A program made the translations under genes and the position numbers. Under the pieces are notes generated by a model. That model made no database searches and was not told the origin of the DNA. It worked only from the letters and a program-made list of their open reading frames with translations. From a virus, in IMG/VR virus record IMGVR_UViG_3300015371_000014, positions 16,354 to 80,353 of that record: a stretch of DNA of 64,000 nt. One strand, given 5' to 3'. Positions 163-36,014 of the stretch are shown here, in pieces. Numbering within the stretch: the first letter of the stretch is position 1; each line of letters starts with the position of its first letter.

Positions 163-312
163 GTGACCCAGCACTGGCGTAAAGACAAAGAGGGGAACTA
201 TTGGGTGAAGACTATTGACGGCGAGCGACCAGCCACCCTGAACGAGATCGAGCAGATCAAGGAACAGCTTCGTCGCCCTGCCAATGATCCCCGTCAGCAG
301 AAAAAGATCTAG
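163..312 (+). CDS. hypothetical protein (49 aa)
   Basis: GTG overlaps the upstream TAG, GAGGGAG RBS, and its TAG overlaps the next GTG; read manually. Confidence 0.6.
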   Translation: MTQHWRKDKEGNYWVKTIDGERPATLNEIEQIKEQLRRPANDPRQQKKI

Positions 313-521
313 TGCTTGCTCAGCACAAAGTTCACAAGATCTCTCTGGAGGGATGGCAAATCACCAAAGAGGGCAAGATCCTGCTCGATATCCTTGTGGC
401 TTACAAAGATGCTCAGGATACCGGGTGTGGGATAAAGAAGCTGTTCCTTGTTCTTCTCCCTGATAAGCCAGATTCCCAGGACTGGATTGCGTTTGGCCTG
501 CCGGATCCCAACGAAAATTAG
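312..521 (+). CDS. hypothetical protein
   Basis: Translationally coupled to the upstream ORF (TAGTG). Confidence 0.65.
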   Translation: MLAQHKVHKISLEGWQITKEGKILLDILVAYKDAQDTGCGIKKLFLVLLPDKPDSQDWIAFGLPDPNEN

Positions 522-524
522 GGG

Positions 525-553
525 TTGACAAACTCCTGATCCTTTGATATAAA
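525..553 (+). promoter_or_regulatory. sigma70-type promoter for the tRNA-like cluster
   Basis: TTGACA-17 bp-TATAAA, ending 7 nt before the first tRNA-like element. Confidence 0.8.
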
Positions 554-560
554 TGTGCTA

Positions 561-649
561 GAGACGATAGCTCAACGGATGACTGTCAAAGACAGAGCGA
601 GAGCGACCGGGAAACCGGGAAGTGTGTGGGTTCAACTCCCTCCGTCTCA
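561..649 (+). ncRNA. tRNA-like RNA 1 (anticodon arm replaced by a GAAA tetraloop hairpin; hairpin inserted in the D-loop)
   Basis: Acceptor GAGACG/CGTCTC; TAGCTC..GAGC D-stem; CCGG-GAAA-CCGG; T-arm GTGGG-TTCAACT-CCCTC. Confidence 0.7.
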
Positions 650-734
650 CGGGACGTAGCTCACAGGTAAGAGCGCCCTGGATTGATGCTCCTTTTCAGG
701 GAGGTATGTGGGTTCAATTCCCACCGTCCCACCG
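650..734 (+). ncRNA. tRNA-like RNA 2 (enlarged anticodon loop, no assignable anticodon)
   Basis: GGGACG/CGTCCC acceptor; TAGCTCACAGGTAAGAGC D-arm; CCCTG/CAGGG stem around a 16-nt loop; perfect T-arm GTGGG-TTCAATT-CCCAC; ends ACCG. Confidence 0.75.
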
Positions 735-735
735 T

Positions 736-852
736 TTACTGCGAACCCTGTCGTAAGTTTCGTGCTTGGGTGCGCGACAGGAGCAGTGAAAAGTGGGAGT
801 CACTGGCCCCGCGAAACGAAAAGGGAGAGGGTTGGGCAACACGCCCTCTCCC
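736..852 (+). ncRNA. candidate pseudoknotted structured RNA
   Basis: CCTGTCG/CGACAGG stem whose loop GTTTCGTG pairs with downstream CGCGAAAC; CAGTGA/TCACTG and GGGAGAGGG/CCCTCTCCC stems. Confidence 0.5.
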
Positions 853-896
853 CCAGTACCCCATCGATAGATACCTTCATCCCAATCTCCTAGCCT

Positions 897-946
897 GACT
901 GGTGAGTAGTTGAAAGACTGCTCATCAGTCGTTTATACTTCTTTTA
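897..946 (+). terminator. probable intrinsic terminator
   Basis: 14-bp stem GACTGGTGAGTAGT/ACTGCTCATCAGTC followed by a T-rich tract. Confidence 0.55.
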
Positions 947-1020
947 GCTTCCCCTGCCGGGATAGCTTTAGAGGGGACGGGGAAGTGCTGGCGGGTAACT
1001 CACTCCGTCCCCTCCACTTC

Positions 1021-1049
1021 TTGACACCTGTCAATTTGGCACCTATGAT
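1021..1049 (+). promoter_or_regulatory. morphogenesis-operon promoter whose -35 is half of the 14-bp palindrome (1021-1034)
   Basis: TTGACA-17 bp-TATGAT; TTGACACCTGTCAA. Confidence 0.8.
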
Positions 1050-1222
1050 GCAATCTAAGTAGGTTGATAGGTGTCGCTGTGGTGACTCTTCACCAGTAAT
1101 CGCCACAACTCGCGACAGGTAAGCGGTCCCCCTCCGGATGCTGCCTTAGTCTCGAAACGATAGCCGCAACCATGATGCATACTGCATCGCGGAAGCATTG
1201 CTATAGAGAGACGAGGCAGAAC

Positions 1223-2650
1223 ATGACAGAACCCAACCAAAGGGAAGAAGGGGAATCTCACCCCTCTTTCCGTGTAGGGGTTCCGATGCAGGTGGCAAAG
1301 CTCAGTTCGGCTGAGCGAGCCAAGCTGGTTACGCTGGCCCACGAGCGTGCCCCTGATCCCACGGTGTTTGAGGATCAAGAGCCTTTTTTCTTCACGGCTC
1401 GTGCCTCAAACCAGACCGTGGACTCCTACTTCACCAGGATGAACGAAACCTCTCTCAACAACTACGCGCAGGACGCGACCGATCCTGGCGTCCAGTTCAT
1501 GGTCAGTCACGATGTGATGGAAGTCGGCTTTGGACGTTCCCTTGCTGGTCGGGTAACCGGACCCAAGGGCAATAAAGAATGCCTGATTGACTTCTATACG
1601 ATCCCTGGCCTCCGCGCTGGGAACGTCTCCTCAGATGAATTCATCAACGGCTCCAGGGCTGGCATCTATGCGGATGTCTCGATTGGGTTCAATCCCAAGG
1701 CGATGATCTGCAATATTTGCGGCAATGACTGGATGCGCCGTTGGATGGATATGTGGGACGACAGCGTTGACTCCTGCACTCACTGGCCGGGAATGGAATA
1801 CGAAATTGAGAAGGGACGTAAGAACACAAAAGTGACCTGCGTCCTTGACGTGCAAGACGCACGTCTCAATGAAGTGTCCCTGGTCTACGATGGCGCAACC
1901 CCTGGGGCTGGTATTGCCGCAGTGGACATGGCGCGAATGATGAGTGCTAGGGGACAATTGAATCCAGTGGAGCGCCAAGCTCTGGAAAACATCTATCGGG
2001 TCCGGATTGCCGCTCCTCCTGGTCTGTATGGGGGAGTCGAGCTAGGAGATGTGAGGTACAGCGTCGTGACGAAAACCACTAATAACACTGAGACTCAGCG
2101 CACCGTTGAGGCCGAAGAGAACGAGGTTGACCCACAGCCGGTTCCTGAGGCTCGCAAGGCGGTAGTCGAGTTTGTTGAGGATCGGGCAGAGGCTACGCCT
2201 GAGGAAAACGCTTCGCCACTGGAGATGGTGCGGCGGAAATTCGCAGACCGTGGGCTGAACCTCGATGGAGAGCCTCACGAGATCATTGATGCCCTGGCGG
2301 AAAAGGCTCTGGCCCAACGTCAGCAAATCAAGGATCTGGAAAAGGAAGCTGGTTATGGGCGCGAAGCTCGTACCGCTCTCTTGACCGCCCTGGACGAAGA
2401 GGTGGTCCGCGCTTTTGGTGGCGCTAACGCCGAAGAGAGCCAGAAGCGATACCGCCGCATGGTTGCCGATCTCGACATGAGTGAGATTCAGGCAGTCATC
2501 GATGAACTAGGAGAGCGAGCCGTCGCCAGAATTGGCAAGGGCGGTCAGAAGGCTCTTCTTGATCTCAAAGCAAACGGGAAAGAGCAACCCGAAGTCCCGG
2601 CTGATCGCAAGCCCCGACCTCGCGGCGAAACTCCTTCGCACCTGATCTAA
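1223..2650 (+). CDS. prohead protease/scaffold fusion
   Basis: First gene of the head module; MVSHD, DVSIGF and EVSLVYDGA motifs of HK97-type proteases with a CxxC insertion; helical charged C-terminus; start at 1223 chosen from GAGG RBS (track start 1172). Confidence 0.75.
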   Translation: MTEPNQREEGESHPSFRVGVPMQVAKLSSAERAKLVTLAHERAPDPTVFEDQEPFFFTARASNQTVDSYFTRMNETSLNNYAQDATDPGVQFMVSHDVMEVGFGRSLAGRVTGPKGNKECLIDFYTIPGLRAGNVSSDEFINGSRAGIYADVSIGFNPKAMICNICGNDWMRRWMDMWDDSVDSCTHWPGMEYEIEKGRKNTKVTCVLDVQDARLNEVSLVYDGATPGAGIAAVDMARMMSARGQLNPVERQALENIYRVRIAAPPGLYGGVELGDVRYSVVTKTTNNTETQRTVEAEENEVDPQPVPEARKAVVEFVEDRAEATPEENASPLEMVRRKFADRGLNLDGEPHEIIDALAEKALAQRQQIKDLEKEAGYGREARTALLTALDEEVVRAFGGANAEESQKRYRRMVADLDMSEIQAVIDELGERAVARIGKGGQKALLDLKANGKEQPEVPADRKPRPRGETPSHLI

Positions 2651-3132: not shown

Positions 3133-4365
3133 ATGGACAAGGTTAAGCAACCGGCTACTGAGACGATGCGGCTCCGTCCTGCGGAGTGTCTGGAGCGTCT
3201 GCCGGAACTGTATCGGGAGGCTGCGCGTGAGAACATTACGCTCAGTCACTTCCTCGAAAACGAAGACCCCAGCCATGAGTGGGAGAACACTGAGGATCGC
3301 AAGATTCGCGCCTTTGGCCGTGTGCTGCGAGCGTCAGGGTTCCGCTTCAAGAGCGATCCCGCTGAAGGTATCTGGGCCGACTCCTTGGAGAAGGTCTACG
3401 AGGATCCTGTTGGACGAGCGCTACTCCCTGAGTGGGCGCGTTCCGTGTGGCGGCGAACCCTCAACAACGGCTATCAGCCTCAGGTGCGGTCCATCTTCGG
3501 TTCCGGCGATGACCTCGTCGGTGGGTTGATGCGGCCCTACACCGATAAGCCAGGGATTGCTGAGCAACTCCTCACCCCGGCTGTGCGCCTCTCCGATCTG
3601 GTGGCGATGACGACTCCGGTCGATTCGGATACCTATCGCAGCGCCTACCTGGATGAGCCATCGGCACCCAACGTGCGCCTCAGCAGGGTGCAGGAAAAGT
3701 CGGACATCCCTCGCTCCTCGATCACCGTGTCTGAACACGTCATCCGACTGTTCAAGTACGGGCGCGGAATCGAGATCAGCTATGAGGCTGGTCGGCGGAT
3801 CCGGATTGACAAGATTGCGTTCTGGCTCGCTCGTGCAGCCCTCCAGGTGGAAGCTGACCGGGTGGCACAGGCGATTGACGTGGCAATCAACGGTGACGGC
3901 AATGCCAGCACCGCAGCCACCAACTACAACCAGTCCGCGCTTGACACGGGTGCCGTCCTGACGGTGAAGGGCTACTTGGCATTCAAGTCCAAGTGGAAGC
4001 AGCCGTATCGCATGACGCACATCTTCGCTCGCGAGACAGAACTGACGAACCTGCAGTTGCTGCAATTCCCGAACAACAACCCGTTTATGTTCCAGGGCGA
4101 TACCCTGGCCGGGTTCGGTGGCATCACCCCGATGCAGGATCTCCTGTCGGGGAACGTCATCTTCGGACAGACCGATCAGGTTCCCGCTGGTGTGTATCTG
4201 GGTATTGACGCTCGCGTCGGCCTGGAGCGCATTACGGAGATCGGTTCGGACATTCAGGAAACCACGCGGTTCATCGAGCGCCAGACGGAAGCTCTCTTCT
4301 TCACGGAGAACGATGGCTTCGGCGTCCTCGACAACCTCGCGGCCAAGACCCTGACGATGGCCTAA
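3133..4365 (+). CDS. major capsid protein
   Basis: 410 aa, position, HK97-like RVQEKSDIP..KYGRGIEISYE segment; strong RBS and downstream terminator. Confidence 0.85.
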   Translation: MDKVKQPATETMRLRPAECLERLPELYREAARENITLSHFLENEDPSHEWENTEDRKIRAFGRVLRASGFRFKSDPAEGIWADSLEKVYEDPVGRALLPEWARSVWRRTLNNGYQPQVRSIFGSGDDLVGGLMRPYTDKPGIAEQLLTPAVRLSDLVAMTTPVDSDTYRSAYLDEPSAPNVRLSRVQEKSDIPRSSITVSEHVIRLFKYGRGIEISYEAGRRIRIDKIAFWLARAALQVEADRVAQAIDVAINGDGNASTAATNYNQSALDTGAVLTVKGYLAFKSKWKQPYRMTHIFARETELTNLQLLQFPNNNPFMFQGDTLAGFGGITPMQDLLSGNVIFGQTDQVPAGVYLGIDARVGLERITEIGSDIQETTRFIERQTEALFFTENDGFGVLDNLAAKTLTMA

Positions 4366-35307: not shown

Positions 35308-36014
35308 GGTGATCCCCTGCCGTTCTTGACGAATGCCTCTGCTACGAGGGGCCAGTGCCGAAAGAAAGCATCTTCCATCTGTAGGGCGAGTTCCTCGATT
35401 TCTGCCATAGGATAGGTAGCGAAGGTGTTCCTGGTGTCATTGACTCGCAAGGAGAGGAAGTGCATCAGAGAGCGAGGATTGAAGGTGACGTGCATCCTGG
35501 TATAGATAGCCACCGGCAGGACGGTACGTGCAACCTCGTTGGCAATTCCCTCGCCAATCATGGTCTTGTAGCTGTCCCACGCATGGCGATAGGAAACACC
35601 CTGGCACACGCCCACGAGATGGTGGTGATACTCAGGCGTTTCTCCCTGCTCCATTGCGGGACGGGCGGATGTGCCGGTGTTGACGAGTCCTCGTTCAGGA
35701 CGTGGCACCCAGAAGATTGGTTCGAGTTCGGTGTAGCGGCCAGACATCTCATTGATGCTAACGCCGATGCGGTGCCGCACAAGCTCCCGTGCCACGAATA
35801 TGGGGATGTGTAACCGAAACTGAAGCCAGCCCTGCTCAAAGGGAGAGCCGTGGCGATGCTTCATTAGGTAGTTGAGGAGTCCAGCTACCCGATTCTCGTC
35901 TCGCTGCTCGACATTACCCAATGACACCCATGCTGCTTGAGCAATCGTTAGGTCACTCCCAGCATGATTGAGCAGGGTAGCGGTGATGTCGGAGGTCAGA
36001 ATGACACCTGTCAA
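35304..36014 (-). CDS. thyX: flavin-dependent thymidylate synthase
   Basis: HGSPFE, RELVRHR, NEMSGRY, ARTVLP, NPRSLMHFLSLR; start TTG 36014 after GAGGGGG. Confidence 0.95.
   Translation of the reverse strand: MTGVILTSDITATLLNHAGSDLTIAQAAWVSLGNVEQRDENRVAGLLNYLMKHRHGSPFEQGWLQFRLHIPIFVARELVRHRIGVSINEMSGRYTELEPIFWVPRPERGLVNTGTSARPAMEQGETPEYHHHLVGVCQGVSYRHAWDSYKTMIGEGIANEVARTVLPVAIYTRMHVTFNPRSLMHFLSLRVNDTRNTFATYPMAEIEELALQMEDAFFRHWPLVAEAFVKNGRGSP
36001..36014. repeat. 14-bp palindrome, 1 mismatch (thyX start)
   Basis: ATGACACCTGTCAA. Confidence 0.8.

Follow-up and report, generated by a model that had tools for sequence, protein, structure and literature searches.

Two abutting RNAs in the head-gene block of a soil phage keep the body of a tRNA and lack, in their predicted folds, the 7-nt anticodon loop without which decoding by either RNA is impossible. 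The pair most likely works through tRNA shape, as a substrate cut by tRNA-processing enzymes, rather than through decoding. More specifically, and with somewhat less than even confidence, positions 557-730 can be read as an accessory cassette in which two tRNA-derived relics are kept as self-excising RNase P/Z modules. This reading is favored because the tRNA bodies are intact, the lesions fall at tolerated places, RNA2 is in a better state than RNA1, a close relative dispenses with the cassette, and the 5' end expected for the downstream RNA matches the start predicted in that relative.

Genomic setting and promoter

The phage genome of ~80 kb (IMG/VR record IMGVR_UViG_3300015371_000014) is complete at 80,353 bp, with 123-bp direct terminal repeats. 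The window, the 64,000-nt stretch of DNA analyzed here, covers bases 16354-80353 of that record, and positions below refer to it. The tRNA-like pair sits in a ~650-nt non-coding gap within the head-gene block, with the large terminase and portal genes close by upstream of the window and the head-maturation and major head protein genes downstream (Table 1). The 492-aa head-maturation protein has no match in Pfam. Residues C180, C183, C202, and H204 and the block VYDGATPGAGI are invariant across 17 relatives, and the C-terminal half is coiled. It probably represents an undescribed family in which protease and scaffold are fused.

The promoter ahead of the pair consists of a -35 TTGACA (525-530), a 17-bp spacer, and a -10 TATAAA (548-553), with an extended -10 TG at 545-546, and so bears out the strong promoter described in the initial annotation of this locus. 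Its absence from the promoter scan has a sole cause: the scan demanded T at the last -10 position, and the last base here is not T. A looser pattern, TTGACW-N15-19-TAnAWW, has only three sites in the 80-kb genome, this promoter being one of them. Transcription is predicted to start at A560/G561, where RNA1 begins; A560 lies 7 nt past the -10 element.

The next promoter heads the scaffold/protease and capsid genes. The palindrome that it overlaps, TTGACA-NN-TGTCAA, has 14 genome sites at up to one mismatch, against 0.13 expected; one copy (1021-1034) lies on the capsid-operon promoter, and the other 13 sites lie elsewhere. Within the RNA1 D-loop insert, ATGAC-TGTCAA (579-589) corresponds to the palindrome variant at 36001 with the 3 central bp removed. 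As far as the sequence match indicates, this element may be the source of the insert.

Table 1. Features of the tRNA-like locus and its surroundings, in window coordinates.
Feature	Position	Strand	Remarks
Near-consensus sigma-70 promoter	525-553	+	Read from sequence
Cassette, 174 nt	557-730	+	4-nt leader, RNA1, AC junction, RNA2 to last acceptor pair; absent from relative in run X6
RNA1, tRNA body	560-650	+	Cloverleaf is MFE fold; full-length RF00005 match below cut-off
RNA1 acceptor stem	561-566/643-648		6 Watson-Crick pairs; outer A560.A649 mismatched
RNA1 D stem	570-573/601-604		D-loop GG at 577-578
RNA1 D-loop hairpin	583-587/591-595		Perfect 5 bp, spanning 583-595; inserted after G18-G19 in the variable part of the loop
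RNA1 anticodon arm	607-610/615-618		4-bp stem, GAAA cap 611-614; 3 bases below normal arm length
RNA1 T arm	626-642		T-loop 631-637
RNA2, tRNA body	650-733	+	RF00005 40.8 bits; cloverleaf is MFE fold
RNA2 acceptor stem	651-656/725-730		Terminal mismatch C650.A731; tail ACC
RNA2 D arm	659-674
RNA2 anticodon stem	676-682/695-701		7 pairs; 12-nt loop 683-694
RNA2 T arm	708-724		T-loop 713-719
Downstream structured RNA, ~200 nt	734-931	+	Fold z = -3.2
Next promoter, TTGACA-17-TATGAT	1021-1049	+	Overlaps genome-wide 14-bp palindrome
Head-maturation (protease/scaffold-like) gene, 492 aa	1172-2650	+	Synteny anchor for relatives
Major head protein	3133-4365		Downstream of tRNA-like pair

Two tRNA bodies without a decoding arm

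RNA1 and RNA2 abut without a spacer and have C650 in common, which is the discriminator of RNA1 (in a 7-position reading) and position 1 of RNA2. Both have a 6-nt variable loop and an acceptor stem of six Watson-Crick pairs with a mismatched outer position. The bases of the elbow and core are kept in both: U8 (U568/U657), A14 (A574/A663), G18-G19 (577-578/666-667), G53-C61, and canonical T-loops with UUCRA and A58. Sequence and folds thus agree with the two abutting cloverleaves, canonical in D-stem and T-loop and with six Watson-Crick acceptor pairs, that had been noticed at the outset.

RNA1 is the more altered of the two. CCGG-GAAA-CCGG (607-618) stands in place of its anticodon arm, and an additional hairpin occupies the D-loop; both features, first noticed by eye, are present in the fold. 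The part of the D-loop that follows G18-G19 varies in length among natural tRNAs. RNA1 also has an extra A567 ahead of U8 and two stem mismatches, A606.G619 and U627.U641. Folded alone, its minimum-free-energy structure is the cloverleaf (z = -1.3), and it matches the Rfam tRNA model RF00005 over its full length with 23.1 bits (E = 7e-4 for the genome), below the 29-bit cut-off.

All stems of RNA2 are perfect, and the cloverleaf is again the minimum-free-energy structure of the RNA folded alone (z = -2.9). Its score against RF00005 exceeds the same cut-off and requires an 18-nt insertion that is confined to the anticodon loop. The anticodon loop of 12-16 nt originally reported for RNA2 holds: it measures 12 nt on the 7-bp stem and 16 nt when only the canonical five pairs are counted. 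An alternative helix of 3 bp with a 7-nt loop, UUGAUGC (680-692), could form atop the 7-bp stem; it requires a 5-nt bulge and is absent from the predicted fold, and it is not regarded as a working anticodon arm.

A decoding tRNA presents a 5-bp anticodon stem and a 7-nt loop with U33 and purine 37, together with a 7-bp acceptor stem. Neither RNA1 nor RNA2 forms such an anticodon arm, and both acceptor stems have six pairs and a terminal mismatch. RF00005 has no match in the genome beyond these two, which leaves the phage with no other tRNA. The suggestion that the pair are non-decoding tRNA mimics with stems still paired accordingly agrees with the predicted structures, in which a 7-nt loop is missing, four stems and the elbow bases are kept, and two pairs differ in a compensatory manner between the copies.

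Annotation programs had been expected to return undetermined or pseudo-tRNA calls. ARAGORN makes no call for RNA1. RNA2 is called as tRNA-Ser(gga), an artefact that arises when ARAGORN forces the long hairpin into a variable arm; at a relaxed threshold, the program makes 90 calls in 80 kb and is uninformative. The Rfam comparison proposed alongside likewise gave a divided result, with the tRNA model matching RNA2 and scoring RNA1 below threshold. Between 400 and 1300, the only other Rfam match is a weak one to YrlA, discussed below.

Paralogy and structural constraint

The odd features common to both RNAs, together with two compensatory pairs by which they differ, argue that RNA1 and RNA2 are paralogs under structural constraint. 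In a hand-checked alignment, 38 of the 40 stem cells pair, and both broken pairs are in RNA1. Divergence is ~15-20% where the two can be aligned. At pair 3-70, RNA1 has A-U where RNA2 has G-C; at pair 30-40, RNA1 has G-C where RNA2 has U-A. Shuffling is powerless as a control for pair counts with two sequences, and a substitution simulation was used instead. Under this neutral model, a crude one in which six substitutions fall at random on 40 stem bases, 0.6% of simulations yielded at least two compensated pairs.

The compensatory pairs could have arisen earlier, while the two RNAs still functioned as tRNAs. The shared non-canonical traits, namely the terminal mismatch and the 6-nt variable loop, argue that the odd state is old; it either predates the divergence of the copies or arose twice.

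An optional cassette upstream of a structured RNA

Contigs of four public sequencing runs were compared with window positions 300-1300. No RNA dataset turned up among the public runs that contain the locus, and stretches left uncovered by the contigs carry no information. In a rhizosphere run (X4), 501-651 is unchanged. In a wastewater run (X6), which is labelled RNA-Seq and is probably DNA, a contig covers 731-917 with three differences (98% identity), and its upstream end, TGTTTGATATAAATGT, corresponds to the -10 region 541-556 with 14 of 16 bases identical. The same promoter would thus abut base 731 in the X6 relative, and 557-730 appears to be a precise indel that is dispensable or optional, as read from this single 203-nt contig and its 16-nt overhang. 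No microhomology is found at the indel edges. The geometry is that of a module: the predicted start is the first base of RNA1, the spacer between the two RNAs is zero, and the indel edge is the last acceptor pair of RNA2.

The downstream RNA comprises two long hairpins, a C/U-rich single strand (~866-895), and a 16-bp terminator-like hairpin (896-931) with a U-rich tail. It is predicted to be co-transcribed with the pair. No Rfam family matches it, and a 24-mer from it has no match in viral contigs. One X6 difference, at 787, is an uncompensated change in the predicted first hairpin. A close relative has the downstream RNA and no pair, so that making this RNA does not require the pair; once present, the pair must be removed from it. 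The start predicted in the X6 relative falls within ~3 nt of the 5' end that the downstream RNA would have after 3' processing of RNA2.

A contig from another rhizosphere run (X1) aligns with 628-663, the junction of T arm, acceptor strands, and D arm, with six differences and no gap. It has the same zero-spacer geometry, and its sequence beyond the match does not resemble a normal anticodon arm. By its sequence, this contig may represent a related cassette in another phage.

The portal-to-protease slot in relatives

Relatives were found through the 492-aa head-maturation protein. The best protein identities are 50-55% (P0002-P0011), and the slot between portal and protease genes was read in relatives at 48% or below. 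A single-protein search of viral contigs gave no related locus, and an alignment-based search (A1) that covered viral, metagenome, and genome collections recovered no relative above 48% identity. The closest relative read at the slot is L002, a 79-kb record with 48% protein identity. Its positions 2013-2024, TTGACAAACTCC, are identical to window 525-536, which comprises the -35 element and its flank. In L002, the TTGACAAACTCC promoter core is followed by an unrelated 75-nt long hairpin and then by a small metalloprotease-like ORF. The L002 genome is devoid of tRNA and tRNA-like genes.

Other relatives carry tRNA genes upstream of the same gene. Among distant ones, the slot holds five real tRNAs in L021 and one in L031, and in the short contig L094 it holds a real tRNA-Tyr. 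In L117, the slot contains a 92-nt tRNA body (2018-2109), with ~390 nt between it and the syntenic head-maturation gene further downstream. ARAGORN misses this body, which came to light with a covariance model made from RNA1 and RNA2. The Rfam tRNA model gives the body 44.9 bits, and 35 inserted nt stand in for its whole anticodon arm. About 70 nt past the body, L117 positions 2163-2200, CUGAUGAGCGAAAGCGAAAC, resemble the core of a hammerhead ribozyme whose stem II has 2 bp; Rfam finds no hammerhead there at E <= 0.1.

Comparison of these sequences indicates that tRNA genes have landed repeatedly in the portal-to-protease slot and that some have lost decoding capacity. The initial annotation had named ordinary tRNA homologs combined with uncompensated decay as evidence against its reading; real tRNAs do occupy the slot in distant relatives, whereas decay of that kind is absent from the pair.

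Seven of the 12 relatives found in bacterial assemblies are in Chloroflexota bins, which hints weakly at the bacteria that the wider group of phages infects. BLAST of window 480-1250 against GenBank phages gave no match. In viral contigs, the RNA1/RNA2 junction matched ordinary abutting tRNAs only, and the RNA1 GAAA arm had no match. The 3' half shared by the T arms and acceptor stems had no match in genome contigs, so that a donor host tRNA was not found. Across the searches of GenBank phages, viral contigs, and genome contigs, no conserved homolog of RNA1 or RNA2 was found.

Aberrant tRNA bodies in other phages

Two scans of IMG/VR viruses were aimed at tRNA bodies with enlarged central regions. 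The general pattern, a class-I D arm followed by 29-40 nt and a T-loop, gave at least 116 matches at 114 or more loci on phage contigs, representing about 110 distinct sequences or more. Among the matches listed, most have acceptor stems with 7/7 pairs and T stems with 5/5 pairs, both of which lie outside the pattern. A standard anticodon call is missing for 51 of the 116 matches listed: ARAGORN leaves 26 uncalled and gives the other 25 'anticodons' of two or four bases. A minority of the matches listed have ordinary anticodon arms with long variable regions.

Long arms capped by a tetraloop occur in L138, L228, L174, and L250. In L138, a cloverleaf located behind a TGnTATAAT promoter, a 10-bp helix with a GCAA cap makes up the anticodon arm. 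The arm tip GGUC-GCAA-GAUY is common to L138 and L228, the outer stems of which are different. In the pairs L232/L248 and L192/L227, acceptor and T arms are kept and the central arms are unrelated, while L153, L155, L157, and L158 form one conserved family. Seven loci (L150, L156, L189, L193, L211, L240, and L215) have a normal anticodon arm (e.g., GUU, UUU, UGG, or CCA) and combine a long hairpin-forming variable arm with a class-I-type D arm, which is unusual for such anticodons.

As recognized by pattern and fold, the aberrant bodies (L138-L253) are a heterogeneous set, and they show that the pair in the window is not a one-off. No description of anticodon-less phage tRNA mimics was found in the literature.

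Possible roles of the pair

In the preferred reading, real tRNA genes would have landed between a promoter and its RNA. Any change that spoiled recognition by RNase P or RNase Z would then have left a long 5' extension on that RNA. Selection for clean excision, or punctuation, would hold the tRNA bodies in place, and changes in the anticodon arm would cost nothing. A single transcript would start at A560/G561, which is also the 5' end of RNA1. RNase P would cut at the RNA1/RNA2 junction (649-651), and RNase Z or an equivalent would cut just past the RNA2 acceptor stem (731-733). The downstream RNA would be released with a 5' end no more than ~3 nt from the start predicted in the relative without the cassette.

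The distribution of changes is consistent with this scheme. As modelled, the pair appears to retain all that is needed for the L-shape and for recognition by end-processing enzymes. Established tRNA structure identifies places where the L-shape and processing tolerate change, and the changes are confined to such places: the tip of the anticodon arm, the variable D-loop portion, and acceptor position 1. RNA2, perfect and adjacent to the downstream RNA, and the distal, mismatched RNA1 form the gradient expected if only the 3' cut matters. The compensated pairs between the paralogs, the tRNAs in this slot of other phages, and a genome with no other tRNA, no TROVE gene, and, among 69 screened proteins, no tRNA-repair or tRNA-modification enzyme also speak for the scheme.

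Several observations count against processing. RNA1 would be unneeded for maturation of the downstream RNA, yet every one of its stems is kept, which the scheme explains poorly. The structured additions, namely the GNRA cap, the perfect 5-bp D-loop hairpin, and two extra pairs, look more designed than drifted. The acceptor-plus-T stack of 11 bp, with its terminal mismatch, is one pair below the canonical RNase P/Z ruler. Moreover, when the 381-nt whole transcript is folded, the minimum-free-energy structure favors a junction hairpin (643-656) over the RNA1 acceptor stem.

The main rival, itself rather unlikely, is trans-acting mimicry. The two RNAs would be released, receive CCA, and bind a host factor that contacts the elbow or acceptor, acting as uncleavable competitors. 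That factor could be a defence enzyme or toxin directed at tRNAs, RNase P, the CCA-adding enzyme, or a modification enzyme. Alternatively, a stable tRNA scaffold would serve to display the enlarged loops (683-694 in RNA2 and 583-595 in RNA1). Full elbow and acceptor features beside closed or enlarged anticodon arms, insertions that are structured rather than random, a position behind the strongest-looking promoter of the genome, and the wider phage population of tRNA bodies with aberrant central arms all favor such a role. Nevertheless, a missing partner weighs against it, and a stoichiometric decoy must rival the entire cellular tRNA pool. A close relative does without the cassette, and L002, the closest complete relative, has no tRNA-like gene. 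The known anticodon nucleases read the anticodon loop, which is missing here. As for displayed loops, neither the RNA2 loop nor the RNA1 D-loop insert is complementary to the phage genome beyond chance level; 10-mers of the RNA2 loop occur about as often as chance predicts, and its complementarity is not significant.

A broader form of mimicry is doubtful at present: RNA1 and RNA2 could belong to a widespread, apparently undescribed class of phage RNAs that have an L-shaped body, a hypervariable or tetraloop-capped central arm, and often an encoded CCA, and that act in trans on host tRNA-binding machinery or immunity. If so, the YrlA-like permuted junction would hint at how tRNA-like domains of the Y-RNA type arise from tandem tRNA genes.

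The two RNAs may also be plain pseudogenes, phage tRNA genes disabled so recently that they remain intact for lack of time and have no role. This is unlikely. The content of the slot does shift freely among relatives, from none to real tRNAs, tRNA-like bodies, and a precise indel; RNA1 scores below threshold and has an additional base along with its two mismatched stem positions; and neither RNA has a conserved homolog in the collections searched. On the other hand, all lesions avoid the conserved D- and T-loop bases and the stems of RNA2, and 38 of 40 stem cells still pair, with two pairs compensated, after ~15-20% divergence. Recently disabled genes would also not be expected to have derived oddities in common or insertions that form perfect helices, one with a GNRA-type tetraloop.

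A Y RNA-like module, in which the RNA1 T arm, the acceptor-strand hairpin, and the RNA2 D arm would recruit host Ro (Rsr), is very improbable. The match to YrlA (RF02553), which covers 625-674 and model positions 30-81, reaches 22.2 bits against a 69-bit cut-off and leaves the Ro-binding stem unmatched, and no TROVE gene (PF05731) was found in the complete 80-kb genome by a search in which positive controls matched. The whole-transcript minimum-free-energy structure does contain the 643-656 hairpin, and 615-619 can pair with 677-681. Similar cloverleaves in tandem have facing acceptor strands that can pair in this way to give a permuted cloverleaf, and this accounts for the match; such a swapped fold is possible for any tandem of similar cloverleaves, and the resemblance is thus expected from paralogy alone. 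Membership among bacterial Y RNAs, one of the ideas first raised for this locus, is largely refuted.

Comparison with known systems

The nearest known relatives of the pair are phage tRNA genes, among them those proposed to evade anticodon nucleases via changes in the anticodon loop (PMC10264068). With these genes, it has in common the fold, the D- and T-loop bases, and the slot as occupied in distant relatives; RNA2 also scores above the cut-off of the tRNA model. Unlike them, the pair has no 7-nt anticodon loop, a mismatched first acceptor position, and a 6-nt variable loop, and RNA1 further differs in its D-loop hairpin and its score below the model cut-off.

Processing of a tRNA-like unit can define the end of a neighboring RNA. 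In mitochondrial tRNA punctuation, in MALAT1 mascRNA, and in the tRNA-like/pre-miRNA units of murine gammaherpesvirus 68, cuts by RNase P and/or RNase Z have this effect. Those systems are eukaryotic or organellar, whereas the pair is bacterial, tandem, promoter-driven, and located 5' of its partner RNA, and its processing is inferred only. In bacteria, the C4 RNA of P1/P7 and the CI RNA of P4 are phage small RNAs matured via tRNA-like features that host RNase P recognizes. They contain a partial acceptor/T mimic within a regulatory RNA, in contrast to the two complete cloverleaves that precede a separate RNA here.

YrlA resembles the pair in having a T arm and a D arm with elbow bases and no anticodon, and its permuted order is mimicked when the junction adopts the swapped fold. 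A pseudo-tRNA of Bacillus cereus, tRNA-Other, has a regulatory role (PMC3399842). Compared by description only, it is likewise tRNA-derived and non-translational and has a phenotype, and it differs in being chromosomal and single copy.

Other identities were considered and rejected. A tmRNA is not called by ARAGORN, and the only match to the tmRNA model is a 6.7-bit fragment at the T arm. An attP or tRNA-fragment integration site does not fit, as both cloverleaves are complete and the tyrosine integrase family PF00589 has no match. Pfam screens of the phage proteins gave no recombinase, the dedicated search having covered the tyrosine family. Among the 69 proteins screened, there are no tRNA-repair, CCA-adding, or tRNA-modification enzymes.

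Significance

Phage tRNA genes are usually treated as decoders only, which supply codons or replace host tRNAs cut by defence systems. Here, the tRNA body is kept and decoding is abolished, twice in tandem, at a place where relatives carry real tRNAs. The locus is therefore a testable case for the use of tRNA shape alone in a phage, whether as punctuation or as mimicry, and the natural deletion allele provides a ready-made control. Because annotation pipelines drop such genes or assign them meaningless anticodons, the phenomenon may be common and overlooked.
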